DNA of 32,000 bases. Origin: Acaryochloris marina S15. Lineage in GTDB: Bacteria; Cyanobacteriota; Cyanobacteriia; Thermosynechococcales; Thermosynechococcaceae. The translations under genes and the position numbers were made by a program. Positions within the stretch are counted from its first letter, which is position 1; every line of letters begins with the position of its first letter. Of the stretch, positions 15,579-32,000 are shown one piece after another. The notes under the pieces are model-generated. The model was not told where the DNA came from. It searched no databases and saw only the letters and a list, made by a program, of their open reading frames with translations. The stretch is taken from the NCBI RefSeq assembly GCF_018336915.1, contig NZ_CP064923.1, forward strand, positions 2,880,001-2,912,000. Direction: 5' to 3'.

Positions 15579-16457
15579 TCACCATCCAAAGTTTTCTCCA
15601 ATTAACTTATATAGTAAATGATTCTGAGAGTAATAGTAATTGTCTAAATACTCATAAATATTTGCTGCCACTTTAGTTCTATTCTGAGAGACATTGCATG
15701 CATGTAAATCTTTAACAAAAAAATCATCATCTACGCCAATAAAGTTGAACACCCGTCGAAGCGTAATTTCAGGATGACTAAAAAGCATCGCACTATTAAT
15801 AAAAAGAATATTGCTCATTGAAAAGTAATTAAGATATCTCTTTATTTGATCATAATAATGTCCACGACTTTTGTAAGAAAAGTGTATAAAGTTCGTATGT
15901 TTATAATCCTGCTGTTCTAGTATTGGCTTCAACCGCTCCTCTTCAGCTAATAATGCATCCATTATTGGCAATGATTCATATCCTAATTTTTTTTCATAAA
16001 AATAGTGAGAAATAGCTCGTTCTGTAGGATTTCTCAGAATAGCAATTAGCTTTGCTTTAGGAATAATTTCAGAAATTCGTTTTGGGACAATTGGATTGAA
16101 AATATATAACGGAGAAGAATCAAAAGTTTTCTGGTTTTTGACAGTTTTACCTGCTCTTGGAAAATGTGATAGGTACCAAGATTGACCTTGTTTGAAATTA
16201 TCAAAATCTGGCTTTAAACCACCATCAAAAAAGTGAACTTCTTTGACATAAGATGGTGAAATCTGACTATGTTGACTTAAGTAGTAGTACAAACTAGAGG
16301 TCCCAGATTTCTGTGCTCCAATTATCATGAAATCTGGTAGATTCCGTGAACGCCAAGTGGCTTTTCGGTAATTAAATATTGCTTTTTTTATAGCTGACTT
16401 CATATGACATTTATCTATATATTTCAATAAAGAAAGCAGGATGATATACCTGAACAT
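15579..16457 (-). CDS. PAPS-dependent sulfotransferase (heparan-sulfate 3-O/N-sulfotransferase-like family)
   Basis: IIGAQKSGTSSLYYYL matches the 5'-PSB loop (compare IIGVRKGGTRAL). LRNPTERAISHY matches the 3'-PB motif. The gene is very AT-rich. An alternative start is Met19 at 16403. Confidence 0.85.
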   Translation of the reverse strand: MFRYIILLSLLKYIDKCHMKSAIKKAIFNYRKATWRSRNLPDFMIIGAQKSGTSSLYYYLSQHSQISPSYVKEVHFFDGGLKPDFDNFKQGQSWYLSHFPRAGKTVKNQKTFDSSPLYIFNPIVPKRISEIIPKAKLIAILRNPTERAISHYFYEKKLGYESLPIMDALLAEEERLKPILEQQDYKHTNFIHFSYKSRGHYYDQIKRYLNYFSMSNILFINSAMLFSHPEITLRRVFNFIGVDDDFFVKDLHACNVSQNRTKVAANIYEYLDNYYYSQNHLLYKLIGENFGW

Positions 16458-16466
16458 GAAGAATAT

Positions 16467-16669: not shown

Positions 16670-19600
16670 TTACTGCCTGACTTTCTCTACTGAGGGCGAT
16701 CTAGATACATTTAAATCAATATAACCCTGGAGGACTTGAACAATGGCATGTACGTGTGGCTCTTGTAACATGCCATTGTGATCACCGGGCATCTGGATGG
16801 TTTCTAGACTATCCGTAATCTTTTCCCACTGTTGCGGTAACCAATTAGAATCTTTGTACTTAGCAGCTTCTTCTAAAGCATGAAATAGAAGAACTTTGCT
16901 AGAGAGAAATTGAGGGTAGTAGGGCTTAAATAATCGGCTTTCTCTCCAGTAAAAATTAGGTGTATATCTACCGTTATGTTGAATATAGAATTGCAGTTGT
17001 CTCCATCGATAGGAAATTAAGTTTTGAATGCCAGATATGCTCTTGGTTAAATATTTGAATAATCCTTGGTGCTTATCTTTCAAGGGAGGTCTAGGCCATA
17101 ATGATGAGTCAAAAATAGCTAGAAGGGCAACTTTCTCGCCCTGTTGTAGGAGTTGTTGAGCCATCTCAAATGCAATAGTCCCACCCAGCGATGATCCCAT
17201 TAAGTAGTATGGGCCAGTTGGTTGAAGGCGACGCATTTCCTGAATATAATGAGCAGCTATTAGTTCAATTCGTTGCGGTATGTCTGAAACACTTTGTGTG
17301 GTTTGTGAAGCGATCCCGTATCGAAGTGCATAGATAGGTTGATCAGGGTCAAAGTGGCTGGTTAAGGGTCTAAGGATAAAATGCACGCAAAAGAGTGGAG
17401 GTCGGCTACCTTTGGGCTGAATTGGTATTAGAGAACGCCAATTTGACCGGGTTCGTTCCTGTTGTAAGAGAGTTGCCAACTCTTGGATCGTTGGAGCCTG
17501 AAAGAATGAAGAGAGTGGCACAATTTTCTCTAACTGCTGTTCGATAGCAATTGCTAAGCTCATCGCTAATAGGGAATTGCCACCCAGCTCAAAGAAATTA
17601 TCTGTTATCCCCACGTCTTGAACCTTCAGAACTTGCTCCCAAATTTTTTTTAGCTGATGTTCTAACGGTGTTTGAGCAACAATCTTGACGTCTTCACAAG
17701 CGGAAGTAAGGTTGCTAGGAAATGGCAGAATGTCTATATCTACTTCACCCTGTGGTGTAAGAGGTAATGCCTCGATTACTACAAAGCTAGAAGGAATGAG
17801 ATGACTAGGCAGGTGTTTTTTGAGGAAGCAATATATATCTTTTGAGGTGAGGCTATGGTCAGTCGCAACCACATAAGCGACGAGCGAGGGTTGGTTTTCA
17901 ATGGGATCGGTTAAGCCCACTGCCTTACCTTCTTTTACCTGTGGGTGTTGTGTTAAAACTGTTTCTATCTCCTGTAAACAGATACTTTGCCCCAAAAGCT
18001 GGCCAGAATCGCCACTCCCCATTTTTACGATCGAGCCATCTGATAAGCATTTTGCCCGCTCACCCGTGAAAAATAAGTATTCTGGTTGTTCGGAATCGTA
18101 GTTCTTCAATGGGTTGGGGATACAGTGATGGCTATCTAAACACGGTAGGTTCAAATAGCCTTTTGCAACCCTAGCGCCCCCAAGGTATAGATTGCCTTCC
18201 ACACCACAAGGAACCAGTTGTTGATTCTGGTCAAAAATATAAGTGTCAATGTTGGCTAGAGGTGATCCAATTTGGCGCTCATATAGGGATAAAAAAGACG
18301 AATGGATGGGTTGCCAACAGACAAAGCCACTGGTTTCGGGTGTACTATAGATTTTCCACAGACAGCACGATGGTAGGGTTTGTAAAAACTGTTTGATGAA
18401 ATATGGTGAGATCCGATCGCTATTGATTAGGCATTGTCGAACAGACTTTAACTGTTTACATTGATGTTCGACGAGATTATTAAACAATCTCATAGGCAAG
18501 ACAAGGGTTGTGACTTGATGCTGCTCAATAAACTTTCCTAGATCTGTCAAACTCTGATGAGCTGATGGCAGAATGATTTGGCCACCATTAACGAGGGCTG
18601 CATACAGTTCAAAGAGTGCCACTTCAGACATTGGAGATGCCCATTGAAGCAAGCGATCTGAAGAGGATAGGTTCAGCTCTCTTGAATCCTGAACAAGCAA
18701 GATTATCCCCGCATGGGTAATTTTGACGCCAACATTGTCGTCAAAAAGCACACAAGCGATATCCTTCTGGCAAGAGGTAAAGGCGGGGATATTGTTGTGG
18801 CTTTGAGTACCTATCTTCTCTTGAAGAGAATTCAGGCAGATAATTTTGCTGATAGGGGTTTCTAGCTGTTCTGCAAGGTTCTGCGTTGTGACGATTATTT
18901 CGACTTTCGCTGTCGTTAGGATGCTATCAAGATCACACTTAGAGAGTTTATCCTCGATGGGGATATAGGTCCCTCCAACTTTGAGAATAGCAAGCTGAGC
19001 CAACACCATCTCTGGTGATCTTTCTAGGTAAATCGCCACGGGAGCTGAGGTAATATCTCCAACAGATAACAGGAAATGGGCCAATTGGTTCGCTCGTTGA
19101 TTGAGATCTTGATAGGTCCATTGTTGATTTGGTGCTGTCAGTGCGATCGCATCTGGTTGACGATTAACCTGAGCTTCGAAAAGCTGATGAACGCAAACTG
19201 ATGTAGACTCAGCCTTTACCAATGACTGAGTTGATAAAAGGACTTGACGCTCACCTTCCGTCAAAAGGGGCAACATTGAAATGGGTTGATCTGGATTTTG
19301 CACAATCCCCTGCAATAGGGTATGAAAATGTTCCACCATCCGCTCAATGGTTTCTTTCGTAAAAATATCCGCATTGTAATCAAACACCATTCCTAGACCT
19401 TCATCCTGCTCGCGCATCACCAGAGTCAGGTCATACTTAGTTTCGCCATGATAGATATAGCCAAATAAAGAAGTGATAGTTAGATCGGGTAGATGAACAG
19501 CGGCCATTCCCCGGCCCTTGGACCAGGGCGGATTTAAGGCAAATTTCACCTGAAATAAAGCCTCTTGCGTTTGCTGATCTGTGGAGATTTCTTCTATCAC

Positions 19601-20812
19601 CTTGGCAAAGGGAATATCTTGATGGGCAAATGCTGCTAAGGAAGATTGCTTAACCCGTAATAAAAACTCCCGGAACGTCGGATTATCAGACAAATCTGCT
19701 TTGAACAAAAGCGTATTGGAGAAAAAGCCGACTAATCTTTCGGTTTCTACATTGCCTCGTCCAGCACTGGCAACATTAATCAGAAACTGCTCTTGGCTAG
19801 AGTAGCGATAGAGCAATGTTTCGAAGGCTGAAAGCAAAATCATAAACTGGGTCGCTCCCACCTGCTGGCCTAATTTCAAAACGGCTTGATTTAAGGTCCA
19901 GGGCAACATTTTTGCAGCTCGATCTCCCCTGTAGGCCCGCTTTGCTTTGGGTCGAGGAGCGTCAAAAGGTAACTTTAAAGCAGGAAACTTCCCTTCTAGA
20001 ATCTCTTTCCAGTAACTTAACTGCGTCTCCAACGCCTCTCCCTGTAACCATTGTCGCTGCCAATCGGCAAAGTCAAGATATTGGACGGGAAGCTCGGGTA
20101 GAGACAAGGGCTGGCCAGCCTTGAAGGCCTGATAGGTTTGGGTTAAGTCCTGATAAAACACATCTGAAGAAGCACCATCGCAAATGATGCAATGCATGTT
20201 CCAAATGCATAAGAACTGTTGCTCCTGCAGCTTAAATAACTGACAGCGAAATAGGGGGCCATTGATTAAATCAAAGGGTTGCCGAGCTTCTTGAGTGGCT
20301 AGACGGTAGGCTTCAGCATCTCTATCCTTCTCAGGCAGATGCAGTAAATCGACCATAGATAAAGTGACTTGCAAGTCCTCAACCTTAACCGTGGGTTGCC
20401 CCCCATCCAGTGGAAAACTCGTTCTCAGCACCTCGTGACGTTGTACGACAGTCTGAATACTACGCTGCAGCACCTCAATATCCAGTAATCCATCAAATTT
20501 GACCACCACTGGCATATTGCTGGCCGTATTGTCAGGGTCTAGTTGCTGGATAAACCACAGTCTTTGTTGCGCAAATGAGAGGGGTAACGATTGTTGACGA
20601 TCAACTTTCTCTAATGCAGGTAACTGAGTTTGATGTTGGGCATTCGCGTGTTGCAAAAAGCCAATGATTTCACTTTTTCGAGCTTTAATCTGCGCTAATA
20701 ATGCTTCGGGCAGTGCGTTTTTGGGGGCTCGATACCGAAGGCGATCCTCTTCCACCCACAGACAAATATTCCTTAAGCGAATCTCATCTAGCAATTCGAC
20801 AATAGAGGTCAT
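16670..20812 (-). CDS. terminal NRPS module: TubC-like N-terminal docking domain, C, A-like (degenerate motifs), PCP, TE
   Basis: Docking: IVELLDEIRLRNICLWVEEDRLRYRAPKNALPEALLAQIKARKSEII. C domain: SFAQQRLWF...MHCIICDG. The A domain keeps A1/A2/A6 (WTYQDLNQRANQLA, LKVGGTYIPIE, GNLYLGGARVAKGYL), but A3/A5/A7/A8/A10 are non-canonical. PCP: FFELGGNSLLA. TE: YLMGSSLGG...GDHNGM. The ATG overlaps the upstream stop as ATGA. Confidence 0.95.
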   Translation of the reverse strand: MTSIVELLDEIRLRNICLWVEEDRLRYRAPKNALPEALLAQIKARKSEIIGFLQHANAQHQTQLPALEKVDRQQSLPLSFAQQRLWFIQQLDPDNTASNMPVVVKFDGLLDIEVLQRSIQTVVQRHEVLRTSFPLDGGQPTVKVEDLQVTLSMVDLLHLPEKDRDAEAYRLATQEARQPFDLINGPLFRCQLFKLQEQQFLCIWNMHCIICDGASSDVFYQDLTQTYQAFKAGQPLSLPELPVQYLDFADWQRQWLQGEALETQLSYWKEILEGKFPALKLPFDAPRPKAKRAYRGDRAAKMLPWTLNQAVLKLGQQVGATQFMILLSAFETLLYRYSSQEQFLINVASAGRGNVETERLVGFFSNTLLFKADLSDNPTFREFLLRVKQSSLAAFAHQDIPFAKVIEEISTDQQTQEALFQVKFALNPPWSKGRGMAAVHLPDLTITSLFGYIYHGETKYDLTLVMREQDEGLGMVFDYNADIFTKETIERMVEHFHTLLQGIVQNPDQPISMLPLLTEGERQVLLSTQSLVKAESTSVCVHQLFEAQVNRQPDAIALTAPNQQWTYQDLNQRANQLAHFLLSVGDITSAPVAIYLERSPEMVLAQLAILKVGGTYIPIEDKLSKCDLDSILTTAKVEIIVTTQNLAEQLETPISKIICLNSLQEKIGTQSHNNIPAFTSCQKDIACVLFDDNVGVKITHAGIILLVQDSRELNLSSSDRLLQWASPMSEVALFELYAALVNGGQIILPSAHQSLTDLGKFIEQHQVTTLVLPMRLFNNLVEHQCKQLKSVRQCLINSDRISPYFIKQFLQTLPSCCLWKIYSTPETSGFVCWQPIHSSFLSLYERQIGSPLANIDTYIFDQNQQLVPCGVEGNLYLGGARVAKGYLNLPCLDSHHCIPNPLKNYDSEQPEYLFFTGERAKCLSDGSIVKMGSGDSGQLLGQSICLQEIETVLTQHPQVKEGKAVGLTDPIENQPSLVAYVVATDHSLTSKDIYCFLKKHLPSHLIPSSFVVIEALPLTPQGEVDIDILPFPSNLTSACEDVKIVAQTPLEHQLKKIWEQVLKVQDVGITDNFFELGGNSLLAMSLAIAIEQQLEKIVPLSSFFQAPTIQELATLLQQERTRSNWRSLIPIQPKGSRPPLFCVHFILRPLTSHFDPDQPIYALRYGIASQTTQSVSDIPQRIELIAAHYIQEMRRLQPTGPYYLMGSSLGGTIAFEMAQQLLQQGEKVALLAIFDSSLWPRPPLKDKHQGLFKYLTKSISGIQNLISYRWRQLQFYIQHNGRYTPNFYWRESRLFKPYYPQFLSSKVLLFHALEEAAKYKDSNWLPQQWEKITDSLETIQMPGDHNGMLQEPHVHAIVQVLQGYIDLNVSRSPSVEKVRQ
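17723..19195 (-). other. adenylation-like domain with degenerate core motifs (approx. aa 540-1030)
   Basis: See the finding. A3 is replaced by IACVLFDDNVGVKITH. The A10 Lys position is Glu (GAA, 17744-17746). Confidence 0.7.
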
Positions 20813-23800
20813 AGCTCACCTTCCTCAAAACCATCATGATTATCATCTGTATCCTGTTCAGGCTGGCCATGAATGGACCAACGAAGAACTTCCACCCTTT
20901 GAGCCAACTCGGCGATGGTGGGAGACTCAAATAAGTGAGGCAGTAAAATCTCAATATTTAAGGCTTGTCTCAGCCGTGACACAATTTGGACGGCCAATAA
21001 GGAGTACCCCCCTAAGTCGAAGAAGTTGTCATAAATGCCAATTTTTTCTTGTTTGAAAATTTCAGCCCAGACTTGCATAATTTGCTCTTCCAGAGAATTG
21101 CGGGGGGCGACATAATTAGCCGCCAGCATTTGGGATGTATCTGGTTTTGGAAGGGCCTTGCGATCTATCTTGCCACTGGAGGTAAGGGGAAAAGTTTCCA
21201 GGGGCATGAAATGATTGGGAACCATAAAGTCAGGCACCCGCGACTTTAAGAACTGGCGAATGTCAGTTACCCAAGTGGCAATGCCTTGAGTTTGGGCATC
21301 CTGACCAACAAAATATCCGACCAATATTCGCTCACCTGGAGTATCTTCACGAACAAGGACTACTGCTTCCTTGACTGTAGGAAATTGACGCAAATTTGCC
21401 TCAATTTCACCAATTTCAATTCTAAATCCTCGGATTTTAATTTGATGATCAATGCGTCCTAACCATTCAATATTGCCATCCGGTAGAAGACGCACCCAAT
21501 CCCCCGTTTTATACATTCGTTGACCTTGCTCGGCTCCTGCTTCAGGCCAGTCACAAAATTTTTCTGCTGTTAAGCTAGAGCGGTTCAAGTATCCTCGCCC
21601 TAATCCTGCCCCTACCAAGCACAATTCACCGGGAACCCCACGCGGTACAGGTTGTGAGTGAGCATCTAAAATACAAACGCCAGTATTAAGCAGCGGACGT
21701 CCAATGGGGACGGTTATCGTATCAGAATTTGTTGTTGATAGCGGGTAAACCGTAGAGTAGATCGTGGCTTCAGTGGGGCCATAACCATTCCAGACCCCAC
21801 GACTTCTTTGATTCAGTGCCTGGGCTAGTTCATGGGACATTGCTTCTCCGCCACTGAGAATTTTGAGATGTTGATTCCCCTGCCAACCCACAGTTAATAA
21901 CATTTGCCAGGTAGCTGGTGTAGCTTGCATAAAGGTGGCATCAGTGTTTGTCAGCAGAAAAAGCAGCCGATTTCCATCCTGAGCCACCTCCCGACTGGCA
22001 ATCACCACTTTTCCGCCCTTAATTAACGGTAAAAATATCTCCAAGACAGAAATGTCAAATGAGATGGGAGTGACTGCAAGACATATATCACTGGAGCTAT
22101 AGTATAATTCTTGCCCCATTGCTTGCAGTAAATTGACGACATTACAATGAGCAATCATGACGCCCTTAGGTTTCCCCGTTGAACCAGAGGTATAGAGGAC
22201 GTAAGCCATATTGGCTGTGTTAGCCGTATTTTGAACCGGTGCTGTAGGTTCTGACTCAATCTGTGATTTATTTTGATCCAGATAAATGACTGACGCTGCA
22301 CAGTCGGGAATATGAGTTTCTAAAGACGTTTCTGAAATGAGTAGTGAAAGTTGAGAGTCTTCTAAGATCAGAGCGAGCCGATGAGGAGGATTGCCTGGAT
22401 CCAAAGGCACATAAGCACCACCTGCCTTCAAAATGGCAAGCATAGCGACAACCATGTTGAGTGACCGCTCAAGACAAAGACCTACTAAGCAATCTGGGCC
22501 AACACCTTGTTTTCTTAAAAAATGAGCCAGCTGGTTGGCTTGATGATCTAATGCTTGATAAGTCAGTTGAGTATCTTCAAAGATCACTGCTACGGTATTT
22601 GGAGCCTTAGTCGTTTGAGTTTCGACTAACTGGTGTAAACAAAGACTGTCAAGCCCAGGGGTTTGAGTAGGATTGAATTGAGCGAGCCATTGACGTTCAG
22701 ATTCTGGCAGCAAAGATAAAGTCGAGATCGGTTGGGCTGGATTCGTGATGATACTCCGTAGTATCGTTTCAAACTCTGCTAAACGACGTTGAATCGTTTC
22801 CCGATCAAATAAATTGGTATTGTACTGGCACTCTAGGGTAACTGCTCCTTTGAGTTCAGTTGCATTGATAAATAGCTCAAAATTTTCATAAGATCGCGGA
22901 TTTGACTTAGATGTCACCTCTAAATCAGCAAACGATAGTTGTTCACTATCTAAGCCTTGATCGATATTGAAAATAATGGGCACGAGCGGAATACGGCTCG
23001 GATCCCGATCCATTTTCAAAGCTTGCACTAAGGTGCCAAAGGTGAATTGTTGGTGATCGTAGGCATCCAATACCGTTGATTTGCGATGGTTAAAATACTC
23101 TTGGAAAGAGTGCTGGGAATGAACTTGAGATCGCAGGGGTAGCAAGTTGACACAATGACCAACCAAGTTGAACTCCCCTGTTGCGGCTTGGCCAGCAGCC
23201 GGCACTCCAACAGTGATATCGGATTGGCCAGTAATGCGAGCAAGATAAATTTCAAAACCAGACAGCAGAGTCGTCATAAAACTACCACCCAATTCGGTCC
23301 CCAAGTGTTTGAGTCGAGTTGTGAGATCGGGAGACAGTTGCCAATCTACCCGAGCAGAATCAAAGGTTCTCAAGGCGGGACGTGGTCGATCAGTAGGAAA
23401 GTCCAACGTGGGAACAGACTCACCATATTGGTTTAGCCAATAATCAAAATCCTCTTTGGCTGCTGATGTTTCTTTAGCATCGTCTAAAGCGATGGCATAG
23501 TCGCTAAAAGCATTAGGTGGATTGAGCTGAGGCACCTTCCCCCGCTTGAAATCGGTATAAAGTTTCGCTAAATCCGAGATCATTAGTGCAATCGACCAGC
23601 CATCACAGATGATGTGATGAACAGTCAAAAGAAGCACATGATCTTGGTCAGTTAATTTGATCAATTGGCCCCTTATAAGGGGGCCATGTTCTAGATCAAA
23701 AGTCGTTCTGACAGCCTGCTGGCTACAGTTAGTAATTTGCTGGGTTTGAACTTCATGATCGAGGTGGGACAGGTCAGTAATCGCGATATCCAACGCTAGT

Positions 23801-24093
23801 TCTCTAGCAATGCATAGGGTCGAACCATCCGGGCTACACGTCGCTCTAAGGATCTCGTGGCGAGCGATTAATGCCTGTAAGGCCTGCAAAATCGCATTTT
23901 CACTCAGTCCCCCCTTTAGTTCCAAAGATTGGGATTCGTTATAGGAACAGTTAGCAGCAGATCCCATTTGTACAGAAGCCCAAATCTCTTTTTGAGAAGC
24001 TGTTAATGGAACTGTAGATGAGAGTTCTCCCCCTGCAAACGGGTCAAAGTCTACAGGAAGTGATGTCACTAGGGGTTGAGATAAAAAACTCAT
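20809..24093 (-). CDS. NRPS elongation module C-A-PCP with acidic C-terminal docking tail
   Basis: C domain: VDFDPFAGGE...VHHIICDGWS. A domain: LTYQALDHQANQLA, LKAGGAYVPLD, MAYVLYTSGSTGKPKGV, FDISV, NGYGPTE, GELCLVGAGLGRGYL, YKTGD, GRIDHQIKIRGFRIEIGEIE, LTSSGKIDR. PCP: FFDLGGYSLLA. Tail: EQDTDDNHDGFEEGEL. Confidence 0.95.
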   Translation of the reverse strand: MSFLSQPLVTSLPVDFDPFAGGELSSTVPLTASQKEIWASVQMGSAANCSYNESQSLELKGGLSENAILQALQALIARHEILRATCSPDGSTLCIARELALDIAITDLSHLDHEVQTQQITNCSQQAVRTTFDLEHGPLIRGQLIKLTDQDHVLLLTVHHIICDGWSIALMISDLAKLYTDFKRGKVPQLNPPNAFSDYAIALDDAKETSAAKEDFDYWLNQYGESVPTLDFPTDRPRPALRTFDSARVDWQLSPDLTTRLKHLGTELGGSFMTTLLSGFEIYLARITGQSDITVGVPAAGQAATGEFNLVGHCVNLLPLRSQVHSQHSFQEYFNHRKSTVLDAYDHQQFTFGTLVQALKMDRDPSRIPLVPIIFNIDQGLDSEQLSFADLEVTSKSNPRSYENFELFINATELKGAVTLECQYNTNLFDRETIQRRLAEFETILRSIITNPAQPISTLSLLPESERQWLAQFNPTQTPGLDSLCLHQLVETQTTKAPNTVAVIFEDTQLTYQALDHQANQLAHFLRKQGVGPDCLVGLCLERSLNMVVAMLAILKAGGAYVPLDPGNPPHRLALILEDSQLSLLISETSLETHIPDCAASVIYLDQNKSQIESEPTAPVQNTANTANMAYVLYTSGSTGKPKGVMIAHCNVVNLLQAMGQELYYSSSDICLAVTPISFDISVLEIFLPLIKGGKVVIASREVAQDGNRLLFLLTNTDATFMQATPATWQMLLTVGWQGNQHLKILSGGEAMSHELAQALNQRSRGVWNGYGPTEATIYSTVYPLSTTNSDTITVPIGRPLLNTGVCILDAHSQPVPRGVPGELCLVGAGLGRGYLNRSSLTAEKFCDWPEAGAEQGQRMYKTGDWVRLLPDGNIEWLGRIDHQIKIRGFRIEIGEIEANLRQFPTVKEAVVLVREDTPGERILVGYFVGQDAQTQGIATWVTDIRQFLKSRVPDFMVPNHFMPLETFPLTSSGKIDRKALPKPDTSQMLAANYVAPRNSLEEQIMQVWAEIFKQEKIGIYDNFFDLGGYSLLAVQIVSRLRQALNIEILLPHLFESPTIAELAQRVEVLRWSIHGQPEQDTDDNHDGFEEGEL

Positions 24094-24159
24094 AGCAAAA
24101 AGGCCTAAATTAAACAGGTTTTATTATGTTGATTTCTAATTAGTTGGGTGAATGGGTAA

Positions 24160-25326
24160 TTATGTAGATGGACAATAGATAAACTTGCGAGCAAAGTAAC
24201 TGGTTTTCAGCCATCTTCGACTGGGTTTCTCAATCAAGAAGTAGAGCAGAGAAGAAAGTCCTAAAACAATCAGCACTTCTACTCCCAGAAGTATCGAAAA
24301 GGAACTGAATTTCATCTCCTGTGGGAAAGTTTGATTAAAAGTTGCCTGCCAAGAGAACTTGATTACATCTTGCACCAGCCAATGACTCATATAGATGGAG
24401 TAAGAGATAGTTCCCAGGAACAGCAAGAACCTCGATGATAGTAAGTCAGTAATCGAATTTCTTTTACCACTGACAGAAAGAATCAAAAGGCTAAATATTG
24501 GAACGATCAGAATTATCTTCAAGCCAGTATGCATAATGATCATTGCAAGTAAGAATGAAGTGATCGAAACCGAGCTATGACTAAAAAACCGACGAGCTTT
24601 TGGATCTTCGAAAAACTGATAAGTAATAATTCCTACTACACCTTCACTAAAGAATCTGATGATTACAGGTATACCTGAATGGTTGATTTTGCCGAAATGA
24701 ATAACTAGAGAAATAGCTAAAAGAGAAAAGATATAAATAACAAGATTGGTCTTTCTGCTTCTTTGAAATAACAAAAAAATTACAAAAGGGAGTACTAAAT
24801 AAATCAGGCATTGGGTGCTAATTGACCAAGCAGGCTGATTCCAAAAAGTCTTAATGTCAAATAGTGGGGATCTTGTATAATCAAATCCTTGCAACATCAA
24901 TAGGCTCATAAAAAGAGACACAATATCCTTTCGCCCAGAAAATGGATGTTGAAAAATGGATAAATACTGTGGCTTTATAGTTAAAATAAATTGATAATGT
25001 ATTAGTTTAAATATTTCAAATATAAAGTAAGAGAATAATAATATAAAATGTAACGGATAAAGATGAGTGGATCTTGAAAAAATAAATTTTTTATAGTCTT
25101 TCCACTGAATATTGTTTCGAAGGAAAGACTTATAAATATGGGTCATTAAAAAGCCACTGAGAATAAAGAAGAAATCAACCCATAGATAACTGTTATCAAT
25201 GAGTTGTGTTTGGGTTTGGAGTGCTTTCCCCCATGTTGGTGCTAAGGCAATTGGGAAATGATGAATGACGATCATCAAAGCTGCAATTCCTCTAAGACCA
25301 GTTAATGGCTTTATCTGTTGACTCAT
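24160..25326 (-). CDS. integral-membrane acyltransferase family 3 (OafA/Lag1-like O-acyltransferase)
   Basis: The N-terminus KPLTGLRGIAALMIVIHHF is the family-3 signature. There are about 10 predicted hydrophobic helices. The gene is AT-rich. Confidence 0.85.
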   Translation of the reverse strand: MSQQIKPLTGLRGIAALMIVIHHFPIALAPTWGKALQTQTQLIDNSYLWVDFFFILSGFLMTHIYKSFLRNNIQWKDYKKFIFSRSTHLYPLHFILLFSYFIFEIFKLIHYQFILTIKPQYLSIFQHPFSGRKDIVSLFMSLLMLQGFDYTRSPLFDIKTFWNQPAWSISTQCLIYLVLPFVIFLLFQRSRKTNLVIYIFSLLAISLVIHFGKINHSGIPVIIRFFSEGVVGIITYQFFEDPKARRFFSHSSVSITSFLLAMIIMHTGLKIILIVPIFSLLILSVSGKRNSITDLLSSRFLLFLGTISYSIYMSHWLVQDVIKFSWQATFNQTFPQEMKFSSFSILLGVEVLIVLGLSSLLYFLIEKPSRRWLKTSYFARKFIYCPST

Positions 25327-25400
25327 TAGGTAATATCAAATATAACTAGCCAATTTTGTTAATTGTGCAATGTTGGATAGTGGCAAACTGACCTAATATT

Positions 25401-25596
25401 TAGGGCTTGCTGAAAAAGTCAAAAGTGCTGATATATGGTTTTTATAGTCTGTGAAAACATTTTTATGTGCAAGGTTAATTAACAATTTTGCGAGGTTTTG
25501 AGCAATTTCACCTTGCACTAAATTGTCCGTATAACTTGAAAAAATCACGTAAATATAAGGGTTTTAAGCTGTTGCAGACTTTTTCAGTAAGCCCTA
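25401..25596. repeat. nested inverted repeat in the methyltransferase-acyltransferase spacer
   Basis: Outer arms tagggcttgctgaaaaagtc (25401-25420) and gactttttcagtaagcccta (25577-25596) are complementary at 19 of 20 positions. Inner arms gtgcaaggt (25467-25475) and accttgcac (25510-25518) match at 9 of 9. The palindrome ttaattaa lies next to the inner left arm. Confidence 0.65.
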
Positions 25597-25754
25597 TTTA
25601 TAAGTGCATAAGTAATTTAATTTTAACATATAAAATAAAGTAAAGCCTAAGTTGTTAATTGCTAGATATGGGATTTGCTAACCATCTGTCAAGGATTAAG
25701 AATTCAAGAGACATAAGCGTCAAAAATTAAGTTCTTATAGTAAATAAAAGAGCA

Positions 25755-26552
25755 TCATTTTTTTGTGAAATAAAATCCAAAGTAGCTGCTGACAAATTGA
25801 TCTGGATGAAAAGGGATTAAACAAGTCCTAGGCTCTTCCCAGCTTTTTACCAATTGATATCCTTGTACTTCCAAGTCGTGAATAAATTGGGTACGCCCTT
25901 GAATCTTATACGGACAGCGAGAAAATTTTAAATTTTGAATAGTGAAGAAAGTGTTGCCGTCATAACAAGGAATATAATTGACCAATAAGTGCTTTGGCTT
26001 ATGGGGTAACTGATCTATAAGTTCTGACAATGATTGGTCAAGATATTGTAGAGCGCCATTTGTAAGTAATAGATCTACAGATTTAGTCTGCTTTAAATCA
26101 GTGATAAAGGATAGATTAGGACAGTGATTTCTAGTGGCAATATCCTGGCCGACTTTGACTGCTATAGGGACATCATAAACCATCCAACTTAAAGATTCAG
26201 AAAAGTCAAGTGCTTGTTTGAAAGCATAGTAGTCAATTCCAACACCACCTCCTATATCTAGAACACTTGATATATCTTTAAGTGCCGTTTCAAATGGTTC
26301 CAATAGGGGGGTATTGATAGGGCGAAATAGGCTGAGATCTCTATTGGGCTTATGATGTGCCTCTTGAATATCATAGTCTGATCTAAATTTGGAAGGTATT
26401 GAATTTTTTGCTTCCTTAAAGCCTTCATAAACGCCTTTATAAAGGTTGGCTCCATAAGGATATTTGAGGTAATAGTAAATATCTGCAACAGCTGGAGTCG
26501 ATTTGAAGCGTTCTTTCGAAAAACCTTGAGCCTTTTTAAGGATGGTACTCAT
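25755..26552 (-). CDS. SAM-dependent methyltransferase (TIGR04325/LIC12133-like, tentative subfamily)
   Basis: Motif I is VLDIGGGVGIDYY. The N-terminal YKGVYEGFKEA resembles the GVY-x-S/G-x-x-EA start of TIGR04325 members. The ATG (26552-26550) overlaps the PKS stop TGA (26551-26549). Confidence 0.8.
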   Translation of the reverse strand: MSTILKKAQGFSKERFKSTPAVADIYYYLKYPYGANLYKGVYEGFKEAKNSIPSKFRSDYDIQEAHHKPNRDLSLFRPINTPLLEPFETALKDISSVLDIGGGVGIDYYAFKQALDFSESLSWMVYDVPIAVKVGQDIATRNHCPNLSFITDLKQTKSVDLLLTNGALQYLDQSLSELIDQLPHKPKHLLVNYIPCYDGNTFFTIQNLKFSRCPYKIQGRTQFIHDLEVQGYQLVKSWEEPRTCLIPFHPDQFVSSYFGFYFTKK

Positions 26553-29500
26553 GCTATTCCTCCCACTTTTAAATATTTCCCCTGACGGTTGGGGTCCGGG
26601 ATATACCAGGCTGGATTCCCATCAGGATCTCGTCCTAACTTGGCACCCAGTCGCGGAGGTTGGTTGGCATTGAATCGATTGATCGTATTCTGAGTCTGCT
26701 CGGCTTGGAGGTTCCTGGGTAGTAATTCCGCGATTTGCAATTCGGTGATACTGTCCTTAAAGGCTTGGGCAACAAACTCAATATCTGCATCAGTGTGAGC
26801 CAAGGTAAAGAAGCAGGGCCGATATTCCCAAACATGTATCCCTTTAGATCTCAGCAGATAAAAGAGCAATCCACCGTAAGTAACATCATCGTCATAGGTA
26901 ATATAGAAGAATGAGCTAAAGGATTTCACCTGGACCGAAGCCCCAACTTGAGTGCAAAATTGCTGCAAATGTGACGTAAGTTGCGTTACTTTTTGCGCTA
27001 ATTCAAGTTGAGGTGTTGGCCCCAATGATTTGAGTTTCAGTAATACTGCTTCTGCCGCAGCCAACGCCAAGGGATGACGGACAAACGTCCCAGCAAAAAA
27101 GGTAACCCCGACTTCTGGAATTGAGTCATCGCCAAACTGCCACTGTCCCCCATCCAGGGAATCCATATAATCTGCTTTACCAGCCACAATTCCAATGGGA
27201 AGGCCTCCACCTACTACTTTTCCATAGGTGGCCAGATCGGCTTGAATGCCGAAATAGGCTTGGGCCCCTCCTGGATGGACCCTAAATCCAGTCACCACTT
27301 CATCAAAGATCAGGGTTGTTTCTGTATCCGCAGTGATGGTACGCAATTCTTGGAGAAATTCTACGGGTTGCAGGCCAGGATCTCTACTCCGAACCGGTTC
27401 GACGAGTACCGCCGCAATCTTATCTGCCCGCTGACGAATCATGTCTAAGGATTCAATGGTCCCATATTCAAGCACCAGAAGATTCTCAAACATGGAAGGC
27501 ATAATTCCAGGGGCTGCAGGTAGGGTTTTCTGATTGGCCCCAGCTCGATACAGAACTTCATCAAAGGTACCGTGATAGTCGCCTTTGAAGGTCACCACGA
27601 GGTCGCGTCCCGTCACCGTTCGAGCCAGACGCAGTGCAGCCATCACTGCTTCAGAACCCGTGTTGCAAAAAGCTACGCGATCCATGCCGGTAAACTCAGA
27701 AACAAGCTTGGCCACTTTGCCTGCTAGGGGTGTTTGGGGACCAATTTCAAAGCCTTTCTCCATTTGGGCAATAACGGCCTGGGTCACAAAGTCGGGATTC
27801 CAACCAAAGAAATTCAAACCAAACCCATTGGTGATATCCACATATTCGTTGCCATCAACGTCCCACAATTTAGCTCCGGAAGATCGCTCGACCACAATGG
27901 GATAAACCATTTCTTTCAGAAGAGGGGTAAATCCCGAAACGGTTCTTGGATCGGCGAGATAGGGGCGGTGTTTTTCAGTCTGTCGTTTAGATTCTTGCGT
28001 TTGAGTTGTATAACACTGGATCAAGTCATCTAGATAAGACTGCTGTGCAGTCGTTAGAGCAGTAACTTGGATCTTTTTGATTTTGGTCCCAGGACCGTGA
28101 GATTTTGCGGGTGGTGTTGAGCTGGCTTGAGAGGGGCCTCTGTTGTGAGCACTATTCCTCTTATCTCCCTCTGGGGATAAATCAATATCTGAAGTTGCGG
28201 AACTAATGGGAAGCGATTGAGCACCATTCACGACTGCAGGTGTAGAACCACCCTGTTGGACCTGCTGAATCAAGGCAAGCTGTTGAGAAAGAATTTGCAA
28301 CTGTTGGCTCATTAAGGCTTCTACCATACTGCCAGAGAGAGGGGAAGAAGCAGCAGGCACACCATTGAGATAAGAACCATTAGTGGTGCCATTGGCATAG
28401 GAAATGGCTGTGACCATTGATTCTGGGGTAGGAGACTCCAAAGGAGGCGACGGTGAGGGAGCTGGAAAGGCTTCAGGCGGGAGGGATTGATCGAGATGAT
28501 TGGCAACAGCCTGGATAGAACTATAGTCTTCTAACAGGTGACGGAAACTAATTTTGACTTTGAATTTCTTTTTCAGGGATAGGGCAATTTGGGTTAAGGA
28601 TAAAGAATCCAGTCCCATTTCTAAGAAGGTGGCTTGGTGATCGGCATCCACTAGATCTAGACCTGAGGCTGTTTCTAGAATCTCTTTAATCAAAGGGGTT
28701 AATCGTTGAGGTCGTGTTTCTGACATGGTGCGTTGGGGAGGAGGTTGAACGGGATCTGCAACAGAAGAAGCACTGGGGGATGAAGAAGTGGTCACTTGCT
28801 TAGAATTCGTCCGAGCTGGTAGTGGATCAATCCAATACCGCTGACGTTCAAAGGGATAAGTCGGTAAGGGGACTCGATGGCGGTATTCATGGCGATAAAG
28901 CTGTTGCCAATCAAGGGTGACCCCAGCTAACCAAAGCTGGCCCAGGGCTCTAGTTAGCGCTTTCCATTCTTGTTGGTCAGCAGCCGTTTTACTGAGGGAA
29001 GCGATGGCGACTTGCGTTTGCTCATCTCTAATTTGTTGACGGGCTAAGGTCGTGGTTGTCGTCCGTGGACCTACTTCCAATAAAATACGGTCGGGCTGCT
29101 GCCACAGGGTTTTCACGCTCTCGGCAAACCGGACTGTGGCACGCAAGTGATCCGCCCAATATTGCGGATCGGTGGTTTGGCTCTCAGTGATCCATTCTGC
29201 TGTGGCTGTTGAAACAAACGGAATTTGAGGAGGAAATAGAGAAATATCGGCACAAAGGGCTTTGAAGGGAGCTACCATGTCATCCATCATTGAGGAATGG
29301 AAGGCATGGGATGTGTGTAACCGTTTGCAAGCCATTTCCTCGATGCTTAAGGTCGCTTCTAGGGCCTCGATGGCAGGTGTGGGGCCAGAGATTACACAAA
29401 GACTAGGACTGTTGATGGCTGCGATCGCAAGTTGATCCGTCAAATATGGGCGGACTTGATCCACCCCAGAGCGCACAGACAACATGGAGCCAGCAGGTAG

Positions 29501-32000
29501 CTCCCACATCATCTTGCCTCGGGCTGCAATCAGCTTCAGGCCATCTTCTAGGGAGAAGACTCCAGCCAAACAGGCCGCCACAAATTCGCCAATACTATGG
29601 CCCATCAGGGCAACGGGTTGAAGTCCCCAGCTCATCCACAATTGAGCGAGCGCATATTCCACCACAAACAAGGCTGGCTGGGTATAAATCGTCTTTTTCA
29701 GCTCCGCGGCGGCGGCTTCTTCCTGTCCAGATTCAGGATAAAGGAGCGTGCGAATATCGAAATTGAGATCCTGATGGAGCAGCTCAGCACACTGATCCAC
29801 AATTGACTGAAACAGGGGTTCCGACTGATAAAAGTTCAGCCCCATATTCACGTACTGTGACCCTTGCCCTGGGAAGACAAAAACCACCTCGCGATCGCGA
29901 CCCATCGTTTCTCGGGTCCCTGTTGTATCCGGACTTAGAGCCTCTAGGTTTTCACAGGCATCCGTAGACCCTTGGCACAGGATAAAGCGACGATACTTAA
30001 AGGGCGTTCGCCCAACTTGCAGAGTATGGGCAATATCAGCCAGATTCACAGAGGTATCGGCCTGGAGAAACTGCCGTAAATTGCTCGATGCTTGCTCTAA
30101 AGCAGTGGCCGTCTTCGCGGACAGTAACAAGAGTTGATAGGGGTGCGAGGGACCCGATGCATTGAATTTCGGTGGCTCTTCTAAGACCACATGGGCATTG
30201 GTGCCCCCCACCCCAAAAGAGCTGACCCCCGCTCGTCGTGGGGTTTCCTGAAGGGGCCACGCCGTCTGTTGGGTATTGACGAAAAAGGGGCTATTTTCAA
30301 AGTCTATCTGGGGATTGGGGGTGGTATATCCCAAGCTGGGGGGCAATGTTTTGTGGTAGAGCGCGAGAGCAGTTTTGATCAATCCAGCAATCCCTGCCGC
30401 TGCCACCGTATGGCCAATATTGCCCTTCACCGACCCAATTGCACAAAACTGTCGCTTAGATGTTGACCCTTGAAAAGCTTGCGTTAATGCTTCTACCTCA
30501 ATGGGATCGCCCAGGGGAGTCGCTGTGCCATGGGCTTCGATATAATCAATGGACTCTGGATCAAATCCAGCTTCCGCCTGGGCCTGAAGAATGGCTCCAG
30601 CCTGCCCTTTAACGCTAGGAGCTGTAAAACTGACCTTATCGGCTCCGTCATTATTGATGCCTACCCCTTTGAGGACGGCATAAATTCGATCGCCCTCTTC
30701 TAAGGCATCGGCTAAGCGCTTCAGAACCACTAGGCCAGCACCACTGTTGAATGTGGTGCCTTTGGCCTCCGCATCAAAGGGACGGCAATGGCCATCGGGG
30801 GATAAGATCCCTTCTTCTTGGTATAAGTAGCCGATATTCTGAGGGGTGGAAATCGAGATCCCCCCAGCCAACGCCAAATCACAATCGCCCTTTAATAGTC
30901 CTTGATAAGCCTGAATCGTCGCCACGAGGGATGTCGAGCAGGCCGTACTAACACTGACACTAGGACCCGTCAGATTTAATTTGTAGGAGGCACGGGTAGG
31001 GACAAAGTCTTTTTCATTCGCCAACATCGTCTGGAACGCCCCCAAACGGTTCACAATCTCAGGGCGTCCACATAAATGCCGCTCAAAATAGGTATTTTGA
31101 CCAGACCCTGCGTACAATCCAATTTTTCCGGCGTACTGGTTAGGCGCATAACCAGAATTTTCTAAGGCTTCCTGGGCGAGTTCTAACAACAGTCGCGCCT
31201 GGGGATCCATAATTTCAGCTTGGCGGGGACTGATACCAAAAAAGGCGGCATCAAACCCCTCAGCTCCGTCGACTACGCCTTTCGCTCGAACATAGTTCGG
31301 ATCAGTCCGCAGATCTGCATCGACACTGGGGTCAATTTGATCCACGTCAAAAAAGGTAATCGACTCCTTACCGTTGCAGAGATTAGACCAAAACGCATCG
31401 ATATTTTGCGCTCCAGGGAAGCGACCCACCATTCCAACAATGGCGATACCCGCTTCAGGTTGTGAGGGCTGGGGGGATATCGAAGGACGAGGGGCGGTCT
31501 GAGTGGGATAGGATTGGGTGAGATATTGGGCCAGTCCTCGAATCGTTGGATATTCGTATAGCTTAACGGCCCGCAACGGCTGTCCCAACTCCGTCGATAA
31601 ACGCGATGCCACCTGTAAGCTCAGAATTGAGGTGCCACCAACATCAAAGAAATTATCGTCTGTGCCAACTTGCTCCAGTCCTAAAATGTCACACCACAAG
31701 TCAGATAGGCGTTTTTCTAGGGTTGTCCGAGGAGCCACTGCGTTAGTCACGGTTGTATGGGATTTAGGTAAATTCCGTTTATCGACCTTGCCATTGGGCG
31801 TCAGTGGAATGGCATCGAGCCCGATCAGAGTTGCAGGCACCATGTATTCGGGCAATCGTTGCTTCAAGTCCTGCTTGATGGTGTCTAGATCTAACGTCAT
31901 CCCTCGGGCAGCAGTCACATAACCTACAAGCTGCTTATGGGTAGGAGGGTCTTCCTCTACGATTGCGATCGCATCTTGAATCGCATCATGTTGGCGCAAT
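26549..32000 (-). CDS. hybrid NRPS-PKS, 5'-truncated by the window edge: (A)-PCP-KS-AT-ACP-aminotransferase
   Basis: The frame is open to the edge. A9/A10: LPEYMVP, PLTPNGKVDKRNLP. PCP: FFDVGGTSILS. KS: GIAIVGMVGRFPGA, STACSTSLVA, EAHGTATPLGDPIE, GNIGHT. AT: FVFPGQGSQ, GHSIGE, HAFH. ACP: LEMGLDSLS. Class-III PLP aminotransferase: CNTGSEAVMAALRLAR, FDEVVTGFR, TYGKVVGGGLP. Confidence 0.95.
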   Translation of the reverse strand, partial: LRQHDAIQDAIAIVEEDPPTHKQLVGYVTAARGMTLDLDTIKQDLKQRLPEYMVPATLIGLDAIPLTPNGKVDKRNLPKSHTTVTNAVAPRTTLEKRLSDLWCDILGLEQVGTDDNFFDVGGTSILSLQVASRLSTELGQPLRAVKLYEYPTIRGLAQYLTQSYPTQTAPRPSISPQPSQPEAGIAIVGMVGRFPGAQNIDAFWSNLCNGKESITFFDVDQIDPSVDADLRTDPNYVRAKGVVDGAEGFDAAFFGISPRQAEIMDPQARLLLELAQEALENSGYAPNQYAGKIGLYAGSGQNTYFERHLCGRPEIVNRLGAFQTMLANEKDFVPTRASYKLNLTGPSVSVSTACSTSLVATIQAYQGLLKGDCDLALAGGISISTPQNIGYLYQEEGILSPDGHCRPFDAEAKGTTFNSGAGLVVLKRLADALEEGDRIYAVLKGVGINNDGADKVSFTAPSVKGQAGAILQAQAEAGFDPESIDYIEAHGTATPLGDPIEVEALTQAFQGSTSKRQFCAIGSVKGNIGHTVAAAGIAGLIKTALALYHKTLPPSLGYTTPNPQIDFENSPFFVNTQQTAWPLQETPRRAGVSSFGVGGTNAHVVLEEPPKFNASGPSHPYQLLLLSAKTATALEQASSNLRQFLQADTSVNLADIAHTLQVGRTPFKYRRFILCQGSTDACENLEALSPDTTGTRETMGRDREVVFVFPGQGSQYVNMGLNFYQSEPLFQSIVDQCAELLHQDLNFDIRTLLYPESGQEEAAAAELKKTIYTQPALFVVEYALAQLWMSWGLQPVALMGHSIGEFVAACLAGVFSLEDGLKLIAARGKMMWELPAGSMLSVRSGVDQVRPYLTDQLAIAAINSPSLCVISGPTPAIEALEATLSIEEMACKRLHTSHAFHSSMMDDMVAPFKALCADISLFPPQIPFVSTATAEWITESQTTDPQYWADHLRATVRFAESVKTLWQQPDRILLEVGPRTTTTTLARQQIRDEQTQVAIASLSKTAADQQEWKALTRALGQLWLAGVTLDWQQLYRHEYRHRVPLPTYPFERQRYWIDPLPARTNSKQVTTSSSPSASSVADPVQPPPQRTMSETRPQRLTPLIKEILETASGLDLVDADHQATFLEMGLDSLSLTQIALSLKKKFKVKISFRHLLEDYSSIQAVANHLDQSLPPEAFPAPSPSPPLESPTPESMVTAISYANGTTNGSYLNGVPAASSPLSGSMVEALMSQQLQILSQQLALIQQVQQGGSTPAVVNGAQSLPISSATSDIDLSPEGDKRNSAHNRGPSQASSTPPAKSHGPGTKIKKIQVTALTTAQQSYLDDLIQCYTTQTQESKRQTEKHRPYLADPRTVSGFTPLLKEMVYPIVVERSSGAKLWDVDGNEYVDITNGFGLNFFGWNPDFVTQAVIAQMEKGFEIGPQTPLAGKVAKLVSEFTGMDRVAFCNTGSEAVMAALRLARTVTGRDLVVTFKGDYHGTFDEVLYRAGANQKTLPAAPGIMPSMFENLLVLEYGTIESLDMIRQRADKIAAVLVEPVRSRDPGLQPVEFLQELRTITADTETTLIFDEVVTGFRVHPGGAQAYFGIQADLATYGKVVGGGLPIGIVAGKADYMDSLDGGQWQFGDDSIPEVGVTFFAGTFVRHPLALAAAEAVLLKLKSLGPTPQLELAQKVTQLTSHLQQFCTQVGASVQVKSFSSFFYITYDDDVTYGGLLFYLLRSKGIHVWEYRPCFFTLAHTDADIEFVAQAFKDSITELQIAELLPRNLQAEQTQNTINRFNANQPPRLGAKLGRDPDGNPAWYIPDPNRQGKYLKVGGIA
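26720..27982 (-). other. in-line class-III (GSA-aminomutase-like) aminotransferase domain
   Basis: The PLP lysine is in TYGK (codon 27218-27220). It is preceded by a P/S/Q-rich linker of about 165 aa. The protein ends about 55 aa after the domain. Confidence 0.85.
28490..28708 (-). other. acyl carrier protein domain
   Basis: FLEMGLDSLSLTQI, with the Ser codon at 28604-28606. Confidence 0.85.
29000..29887 (-). other. acyltransferase domain, malonyl-type motifs
   Basis: GQGSQ is present. GHSIGE has its Gly codon at 29600-29602. The HAFH motif is associated with malonyl-CoA selection. Confidence 0.85.
30176..31453 (-). other. ketosynthase domain (fragment aa 183-608)
   Basis: Active-site Cys is in STACSTS. 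The His residues are in EAHGTATP and NIGHT. Confidence 0.9.

Follow-up and report, generated by a model that had tools for sequence, protein, structure and literature searches.

How an assembly line that appears to end in a broken module, and that is accompanied by genes of kinds more typical of glycan modification, could still yield a product is a question raised by a 32,000-nucleotide stretch of the Acaryochloris marina S15 genome (positions 2,880,001-2,912,000 of contig NZ_CP064923.1, assembly GCF_018336915.1; hereafter the window). The second half of the window carries, on its minus strand, a hybrid nonribosomal peptide synthetase-polyketide synthase (NRPS-PKS) cluster that an earlier sequence-only reading had described as matching no known cluster and as making a small beta-aminated acyl-peptide, possibly methylated, O-acylated, and sulfated. 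The analysis reported here leans toward a different answer, namely that the cluster is probably an intact, orphan, three-module NRPS-PKS cassette of a widespread and uncharacterised family that is tied to loci for surface polysaccharide (exopolysaccharide, EPS).

Six minus-strand open reading frames (ORFs) lie where they had been placed by the sequence-only reading, the last of them open at the end of the window. From upstream to downstream these encode the 3' part (5.45 kb) of a megasynthase (26549-32000, ORF 26549-31999; Pfam order (AMP-binding_C)-PP-binding-KS-AT-PP-binding-Aminotran_3), a 265-residue methyltransferase (25755-26552; NCBIfam TIGR04325), a membrane acyltransferase (24160-25326; Pfam Acyl_transf_3, 79 bits), the NRPS module 2 (20809-24093; Condensation-AMP-binding-PP-binding), the NRPS module 3 (16670-20812; TubC_N-Condensation-AMP-binding-PP-binding-Thioesterase), and a sulfotransferase (15579-16457; Pfam Sulfotransfer_1). 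Checks on the sequence verified the two ATGA stop/start overlaps, between the megasynthase and the methyltransferase and between modules 2 and 3, as well as the AT-rich spacer of 428 bp (25327-25754; GC 0.30) 5' of the acyltransferase gene and the spacer of 212 bp, so that the ORFs, domain order, overlaps, and spacers stand as previously described. Retrieved relative loci and contigs are given L-numbers here; the window lineage is also sampled in L001, L095, and L096, of which L001 is 99% identical to the window, carries the same genes, and shows the region beyond it. The closest relative, L003, is a sister Acaryochloris strain whose synthetase proteins are 82-91% identical at a synonymous divergence (dS) of ~0.6. 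No similarity was found between the 428-bp spacer and the 226-bp spacer that separates the methyltransferase and NRPS genes of L003, consensus scans for promoters and terminators at operon boundaries gave counts no higher than shuffled controls, and Rfam and tRNA scans returned no matches.

The cluster is not idiosyncratic. A profile of the aminotransferase (AMT) domain plus the tail that follows it was run against one genome per species, and the domains of the window were then mapped onto the matches. This gave 80 loci with a recurring core of [A-PCP-KS-AT-ACP-AMT], [C-A-PCP], and [C-(A/dead A/no A)-PCP-(TE)], where A is adenylation, PCP peptidyl carrier protein, KS ketosynthase, AT acyltransferase, ACP acyl carrier protein, C condensation, and TE thioesterase. 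The core was recovered from Aetokthonos, Pseudanabaena, Chamaesiphon, Marinobacter, Flavobacterium, Myxococcales, Acidobacteria, Haloferula (Verrucomicrobia), and Saprospiraceae (Bacteroidota), and from many Lysobacterales (Lysobacter, Luteimonas, Pseudoxanthomonas, Dokdonella, and Rhodanobacter), and the family covers at least six phyla or classes. Among cyanobacteria, Lysobacterales, Marinobacter, and other groups, the AMT and its tail align at 50-75% identity across residues 1-470. Substrates across the family are assigned from adenylation codes. By these, the first adenylation domain (A1) is of the Val type in ~25 loci, with the code DALWLGGTFK identical in at least 12 and the same as in the window in L007, L008, L009, L024, L025, L028, L034, L038, L040, and L074; it is of the Pro type in Marinobacter and some others and of the Thr type in Chamaesiphon. 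The second (A2) is of the Gly type in most loci, and that of the window falls in a DI[LVM]Q[LIV]GG[IV]YK subtype together with L022, L026, L028, and L052. None of the Acaryochloris species-representative genomes scanned returned the cluster, and the cassette is therefore taken to be strain-variable within the genus.

Several departures from the core were observed. A Marinobacter variant (L048, L049, L056, L059, L061, and L069) has a Pro-type A1 (DVQFIAQVVK), an extra module with the code DVCHLTLVHK, and a fixed set of accessories consisting of a phosphopantetheinyl transferase, a Cupin_8/JmjC hydroxylase, a FemAB-like GNAT protein, a sugar-type formyltransferase, and two hydrolases like those described below (hydr1/hydr2-like). 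In L007 (3201-10807) the megasynthase and the TIGR04325 methyltransferase occur by themselves, with neither the downstream NRPS nor a TE, and L004-L006 (10001-10807) have the same neighbours as L007 (SpoU, TrmO, HEAT) and keep the methyltransferase while the megasynthase is missing. Six Nostocales loci (L068, L070, L071, L073, L075, and L076) have a different pathway architecture: a related AMT (48-50% identity) stands alone, with NRPS modules (Ser-type, DVWHISLIDK) on its flanks and KS-AT on a protein of its own, and glycan genes are not nearby.

The tie to EPS is seen first in Acaryochloris itself. Beyond the end of the window and upstream of the megasynthase, L001 carries a Bac_transf gene and a gene for a WecG/TagA glycosyltransferase that is broken into two fragments. 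The Bac_transf product (P0158), encoded in L001 and L095 on the contig that bears the cluster, exceeds the TIGR03025 cut-off (357 bits versus 296), as expected of a priming polyprenyl-phosphate glycosylphosphotransferase, and has its best match in TIGR03013 at 379 bits, below the cut-off of 393. In sister-strain sequence (L093), the 10 kb upstream read GT4-GT4-sulfotransferase-Wzx ... Wzc-Bac_transf-WecG-megasynthase (GT, glycosyltransferase), whereas a more distant genome (L094) has the syntenic order MT-GT4-GT4-ST-Wzx-Wzy-Wzc-Bac_transf (MT, methyltransferase; ST, sulfotransferase) at 50-71% identity and then FtsQ/FtsZ, without an NRPS-PKS. From this comparison of L093 and L094, the stretch from WecG to the cluster sulfotransferase is best read as a cassette joined onto the Bac_transf end of an EPS locus of the Wzx/Wzy type. 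The sister-strain locus retains just a 21-residue remnant of Wzy (L093:5685-6766) where L094 has a gene for a 400-residue Wzy_C polymerase (L094:5766-6968).

Similar neighbours recur elsewhere in the family. The flanking ORFs of family loci were clustered, and representatives were annotated and then used as BLAST probes. A Bac_transf gene adjoins the core in Acaryochloris, seven Lysobacterales, Chamaesiphon, and Haloferula, and the Lysobacterales proteins pass TIGR03013, the priming transferase of EPS associated with XrtA/PEP-CTERM, at 540 bits. In two independent Chamaesiphon metagenome-assembled genomes (MAGs) a GT2 domain is fused in frame to the N-terminus of the megasynthase (L013:3698-11398 and L018:3527-11392), and in L013 genes for Wzy_C, a Wzx flippase, GT1, and GT4 come next. 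Wzc-like kinases lie in the flanks of Acidobacteria and Haloferula, the latter also with a BBP2 porin, and other flank genes in the family encode GINT1_N, GT2, sugar-type formyltransferase, and FemAB-like GNAT proteins. Loci that lack a TE have alpha/beta-hydrolases with a remote relationship to the exosortase A-associated hydrolases 1 and 2 (hydr1_PEP and hydr2_PEP), at scores of 46-79 bits that are far under the curated cut-offs of 168-203. No PEP-CTERM-like ORF was found in the window, nor an exosortase in any of the flanks. When loci of 15 kb or more with 3-5 kb of visible flank at either side were counted, a core glycan-assembly gene was present in at least 21 of 52 family loci versus none of the six contrast loci, which are the Nostocales AMT loci of different architecture.

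The three tailoring genes were described by the sequence-only reading as being of glycan-modifying kinds; the EPS context found here agrees with that description, but the three genes are not equivalent in conservation. For the methyltransferase, a Pfam search gives no match even at E = 10, and no Pfam family supports the earlier assignment; it is supported instead by NCBIfam, where the ORF scores 178 bits against TIGR04325 ('MTase_LIC12133'; cut-off 80), by an identical NCBI protein named TIGR04325-family methyltransferase from Acaryochloris marina, and by an AlphaFold2 model (mean pLDDT 90) with a class-I S-adenosylmethionine (SAM) methyltransferase fold. A substrate class could not be taken from the structure, for which Foldseek neighbours were generic class-I methyltransferases at TM scores of ~0.45, and a sequence search of the PDB gave no match. 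The gene overlaps or adjoins the end of the AMT in L003, L007, L010, and L088 and is near the core, at 28-48% identity, in L022, L024, L028, L038, L040, and L092; its ratio of nonsynonymous to synonymous substitution rates (dN/dS) is 0.15 versus L003. The methyltransferase is a family-level and translationally coupled partner of the megasynthase. The Acyl_transf_3 gene, in contrast, is a sporadic and variable accessory. It is missing from L003, where no scars of a deletion were detectable, while a 39% identical orthologue occupies the same slot in L012, between the megasynthase and C-A-PCP, and Marinobacter L048, L049, L056, and L069 have homologues of 29-32% identity downstream of the core (none was detected in L059 and L061). 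The sulfotransferase appears to be of the kind that uses 3'-phosphoadenosine 5'-phosphosulfate (PAPS) and acts on carbohydrate, its nearest solved relatives being the heparan-sulfate 3-O- and N-sulfotransferases 3-OST and NDST. It has a 77% identical orthologue in L003 (dN/dS 0.11) and a 27% identical homologue (E = 1e-14) beside a homologous cluster in the Rhodanobacteraceae MAG L022; the BLAST probes found it in no other family flank, which points to a lineage-restricted gene. An origin as a duplicate of the EPS-locus sulfotransferase was ruled out, as BLAST finds no similarity between the two. All three genes have a GC content of 0.32-0.37 (acyltransferase 0.34, sulfotransferase 0.32) compared to 0.44-0.50 for the synthetases.

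These patterns bear on the chief competing account, in which the cluster stands alone and makes a free, diffusible, beta-aminated peptide that is tailored directly, with its adjacency to EPS genes the result of insertion into a variable island. That the genes share a strand, are closely spaced, and are translationally coupled at two points would suit such a pathway, as would a type-I TE with intact catalytic Ser and His and the fact that the EPS locus has either the whole cassette or none of it. Moreover, the methyltransferase is tightly coupled even where glycan genes are not visible (L007 and L088). The same cannot be said of the other two tailoring genes: Acyl_transf_3 is missing from the sister strain and the sulfotransferase from most members of the family, and all three tailoring genes have a much lower GC content than the synthetases. 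While a sulfotransferase homologue does lie beside the homologous cluster of L022, the enzyme in the window resembles carbohydrate sulfotransferases, and glycan-assembly genes recur in no fewer than five independent lineages, one case being a covalent fusion of GT2 to the megasynthase. A free peptide is therefore considered unlikely, although it retains appreciable weight. Likewise, the methylated, O-acylated, and sulfated small peptide that had been predicted is not the most likely product, since the glycan-type genes are best explained if the cassette is part of an EPS locus.

What an EPS-linked cassette would make depends on the megasynthase. The full protein has 2,500 residues in L001, the 5' 2.05 kb of its gene lying outside the window, and by Pfam its domain order is half-C-A-PCP-KS-AT-ACP-AMT. 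The N-terminus matches positions 195-456 of the Condensation profile, with HHxxxDG missing, and is followed by a complete A domain of the amino-acid type. The KS (~30326-31447) has its Cys/His/His, the AT (~28922-29884) carries GHSIG and HAFH motifs, which we take to denote the malonyl type, the ACP carries DSL, the PCPs retain their Ser, and the class-III AMT (~26828-27904) has the Lys that binds pyridoxal phosphate (PLP; YGKVVGGG) and is followed by the conserved 60-residue C-terminal tail that closes the megasynthase. The hybrid character and the KS-AT-ACP-AMT logic resembling that of MycA and McyE, recognised earlier, are borne out by this order and these catalytic residues. Adenylation codes were read by alignment to GrsA-PheA, for which the control gives DAWTIAAICK. 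A1 has all of the A1-A10 core motifs, Asp235, and Lys517, and its code (DALWLGGTFK) is of the Val type when compared to the Stachelhaus code for Val (DAFWIGGTFK). Because of these residues and this code, the starter is predicted to be an amino acid, not an acyl chain, and where a beta-aminated acyl-peptide had been proposed, a Val-derived 3,4-diamino acid is now predicted in place of a beta-amino fatty acid. A lipopeptide of the iturin or microginin type was ruled out, because what loads the starter is an A domain of the amino-acid type. Module 2 has a C domain with a canonical HHIICDG and an A domain with full core motifs and the Gly-like code DILQLGGIYK, compared with DILQLGLIWK for Gly. The catalytic domains of the megasynthase have dN/dS values of 0.04-0.12 between the window and L003. 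Across A2-PCP2 and the docking domain of module 3 (20650-22650), dS falls to 0.05-0.26 (0.18-0.26 for A2-PCP2 itself) versus ~0.5-0.7 in the rest of the cluster, which suggests recent recombination between strains at this tract.

Module 3, in which a defect had been suspected, is indeed degenerate, but as a conserved trait of the family and not as the result of recent decay. The second, catalytic His of its C domain (C3) is replaced by Cys (HCIICDG, ~20174-20194), and its A domain (A3, ~17747-19180) is dead: the P-loop is lost (FDDNVGVKITH where YTSGSTGKPKG is expected), Asp235 and Lys517 are both replaced by Glu, motifs A5, A7, and A8 are degenerate, and the code reads EVFVLNIGFE. The PCP (PCP3, ~17465-17656) and the TE (~16673-17395; GSSLG and GDH motifs) follow. 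L003 shares both the dead A3 code (EVFVLNTGFE) and the HC motif of C3. When dN/dS was computed between the window and L003 domain by domain, values were 0.04-0.16 for catalytic domains, 0.10 for C3, 0.07 for PCP3, and 0.20 for the TE, as compared to 0.24 for the dead A3, 0.29 for the half-C, and 0.33-0.35 for two long inter-domain linkers. The dead A3 and the half-C thus evolve almost at the speed of linkers, whereas C3, PCP3, and the TE are constrained. Further, Aetokthonos, Pseudanabaena, and Chamaesiphon, at 45-66% identity, share the HC variant of C3, for which L088 has HS. Across the family, A3 is intact and always of the Gly type in L026, L034, L052, and L043, degenerate in the cyanobacterial clade, including Acaryochloris and Aetokthonos, and in L022, L024, L028, L038, and L040, and missing altogether in L027, L029, L033, L035, L036, L088, and L092. 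The seemingly defective last module is thus an old, conserved, and selected state of the family, and recent pseudogenisation of this module was ruled out by dN/dS and by the occurrence of the same variants in other genera.

The notion that the whole cluster is a decaying and non-functional remnant is very improbable on the same grounds. Although the truncated N-terminal C, the dead A3, and the C3 that lacks its catalytic His could be taken for signs of decay, as could the frameshifted and stop-containing WecG gene in two assemblies, the insertion sequence next door, and the absence of the cluster from every Acaryochloris species-representative genome, every synthetase ORF is intact across 16 kb, dN/dS is 0.04-0.20 for the catalytic domains, C3, PCP3, and the TE at a dS of ~0.6, and the lesions of the synthetases themselves (half-C, HC or HS variant of C3, dead or missing A3) are kept in Aetokthonos, Pseudanabaena, Chamaesiphon, and L088, and so are old. 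For an intact cassette, the simplest reading is that A3 had copied the specificity of A2, became dispensable through loading of PCP3 in trans by A2, and decayed repeatedly. Such trans-loading is the most plausible option because the intact A3 domains of relatives are Gly-specific by their codes, and yersiniabactin HMWP2 offers a precedent for one A domain that loads several carrier domains in trans.

Comparison with characterised systems clarifies what is shared and what is new. MycA/ItuA and McyE have the same block of KS, malonyl-type AT, ACP, and class-III AMT, after which a C domain takes the beta-amino acyl chain. The assembly line in the window would likewise feed its AMT product to a C domain with HHxxxDG (C2) on the next protein. 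MycA/ItuA and McyE, however, start from a fatty acid or polyketide chain and the window from an amino acid via a true A domain, so that the product would bear a vicinal diamine; moreover, the AMT of MycA/ItuA and McyE is fused to a C domain, whereas in most family members it ends the protein with the conserved tail. Neither the fatty-acyl-AMP ligase loading domain of iturin-type systems nor their seven-residue assembly line with a cyclising TE has a counterpart in the window, where two NRPS modules follow the megasynthase, the last without adenylation. A likeness by chemistry is found in biotin synthesis, where BioF makes KAPA and the class-III PLP aminotransferase BioA turns this alpha-amino ketone into the vicinal diamine DAPA, the conversion that is predicted here for a Val-malonate intermediate, except that the substrate would be carrier-bound and built by a KS instead of by an enzyme of the AONS type. 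On the polysaccharide side, cyanobacterial sulfated EPS loci of the Wzx/Wzy type (such as synechan xss) and XrtA/PEP-CTERM EPS loci, which include an acyl-CoA ligase, an ACP, a PLP enzyme, and hydrolases 1 and 2 (TIGR03098-03101), share with the family Bac_transf (TIGR03025/TIGR03013), Wzx, Wzc, GT4s, and sulfotransferases. The XrtA-type loci also share the concept of a carrier-protein side pathway inside an EPS locus, with a single ligase and ACP in place of the full three-module NRPS-PKS of the family. As concepts, these side pathways and NRPS-glycan hybrids of the glycopeptidolipid type come nearest to the cassette.

Membership in an already characterised pathway that went unrecognised from literature and database names alone is also improbable, if somewhat less so than decay. 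Hybrids with KS-AT-ACP-AMT are common in cyanobacteria (iturin-like, microginin, puwainaphycin, and microcystin), and the literature covered was the open-access part. In that literature, no paper was found that describes the family or Acaryochloris NRPS/PKS, EPS or exosortase together with NRPS/PKS, TIGR04325, or the A1 code, and none of 155 homologues bears an informative name, in line with the earlier statement that the cluster fits no known pathway. To our knowledge, the combination of a Val-type starter, a two-module peptide, and a terminal module that lacks adenylation matches no described pathway. Other NRPS products do meet with similar tailoring: mycobacterial glycopeptidolipids receive sugars, O-methyl groups, acetyl groups added by membrane acyltransferases, and in some cases sulfate, and the monobactam sulfazecin is sulfonated in trans while carrier-bound (SulN). 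Compared by description, the former differ in a long fatty-acyl starter and four modules and the latter in diaminopropionate (Dap) and a beta-lactam-forming TE, and neither is located in a Wzx/Wzy locus. The aeruginoguanidine/microguanidine (agd) pathway of Microcystis has an Arg-recognising NRPS, prenyltransferases, and several sulfatase/sulfotransferase genes (PMC12371840). Although agd and the window are both cyanobacterial pathways to short nonribosomal peptides with one or more sulfotransferases, the window has Val- and Gly-type codes and no prenyltransferase, and identity with agd was ruled out on this gene content.

A pathway that accommodates these observations can be outlined, with the chemistry inferred from the motifs and from the MycA and BioA precedents. 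A1 would load L-Val onto PCP1, the KS and AT would add malonate to form a 4-amino-3-oxo-5-methylhexanoyl thioester, and the in-line PLP aminotransferase would convert its 3-oxo group to an amine to give the vicinal 3,4-diamino-5-methylhexanoyl-S-ACP. The coupled TIGR04325 methyltransferase would then methylate the diaminoacyl unit, C2 would couple the methylated unit to the Gly-like residue activated by A2, PCP3 (whose own module has lost adenylation) would be loaded in trans by A2 with a second Gly, and the TE would release diaminoacyl-Gly(-Gly). Finally, the peptide may be transferred to, or made and exported along with, a lipid-linked sugar or polysaccharide, with the heparan-type sulfotransferase and the Acyl_transf_3 enzyme acting on the glycan part. 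Release to, or co-processing with, glycan is the least secure step of this proposal; it is favoured all the same, since an association across phyla and a GT2 fusion would otherwise be difficult to account for. In its most specific form, the proposal has a cationic vicinal-diaminoacyl-glycyl peptide, derived from Val, attached covalently to a lipid-linked sugar or to the repeat unit of an EPS, and in this form it is tentative and doubtful as yet.

Several points weigh against an EPS-linked cassette with this chemistry. In the window lineage WecG is a pseudogene, with a frameshift and two internal stop codons in L001:1450-2280 and fragmentation also in a second assembly (L096:2024-2688), while the gene of the sister strain L003 is intact at 276 residues, and the window-lineage contigs end 364 bp upstream of Bac_transf. 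The contrast set for glycan genes consists of six loci from one lineage, and ~60% of family loci have no glycan gene in their visible flanks, with none or weak ones in L088, L007, and L030. The cluster sulfotransferase is not a paralogue of the one in the EPS locus, and both Acyl_transf_3 enzymes and sulfotransferases also tailor small molecules (e.g., macrolide acyltransferases, SxtN, and CyrJ). Moreover, three residues of the A2 pocket (positions 322, 330, and 331) are not those of the canonical Gly code, condensation by module 3 is not assured with a C3 that lacks the second His, and the substrates overall are code-based predictions in a family for which the chemistry is known for no member.

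Genes next to the cluster fit the setting that is proposed for it. An exported protein of 599 residues (12169-13968, plus strand), possibly a boundary or accessory gene, matches no Pfam or NCBIfam family and has an N-terminal signal-like segment and no predicted transmembrane segments; in L003, a gene for 601 residues has the same position and orientation beside the sulfotransferase and is, on that basis, a putative orthologue. Further along, a 1,573-residue protein (6440-11161, minus strand) with G8, CEMIP-type beta-helix, and PKD domains and ~20 RTX calcium-binding repeats looks like a secreted glycan-active enzyme. Together, the two proteins are compatible with an extracellular-glycan neighbourhood. 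An NEHH motif in the 599-residue protein gives the impression of glycoside hydrolases, and GC skew is strongly negative at 7-8 kb, within the region of the 1,573-residue gene. Between the sulfotransferase and the 599-residue gene is the insertion sequence that had been noted earlier, which belongs to the ISKra4 family (14018-15505, minus strand; transposase 14065-15417, 233 bits, cut-off 205), is bounded by 37-nt imperfect inverted repeats (14018-14054 and 15469-15505), is absent from that site in L003, and lies outside the pathway. A Tll0287-like sensor protein with HAMP (3951-4856) and a zinc-ribbon membrane protein (5194-6087), both on the plus strand, have no visible relation to the cluster.

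The EPS of cyanobacteria and of environmental bacteria carry sulfate, acetyl, methyl, and ill-defined peptide moieties, and the genetic basis of these is largely unknown. An NRPS-PKS cassette that is embedded in EPS loci across phyla is a concrete candidate for a modification of this kind, with the GT2-megasynthase fusion as physical support, and genome mining would then read orphan NRPS-PKS hybrids of this kind as surface-glycan biosynthesis and not as toxin or antibiotic clusters. Independent of any link to glycan, the family predicts an unusual vicinal-diamine building block, and it offers a natural series of the decay of a redundant A domain, from intact through degenerate to deleted, under a selected C-PCP-TE. 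If a peptide is indeed covalently attached to sugar, it would represent a new, phylum-spanning class of polysaccharide substituent with dedicated partners, namely the TIGR04325 methyltransferase, the hydr1/hydr2-like hydrolases or the TE acting as transferase, and the fused GT2 of Chamaesiphon.

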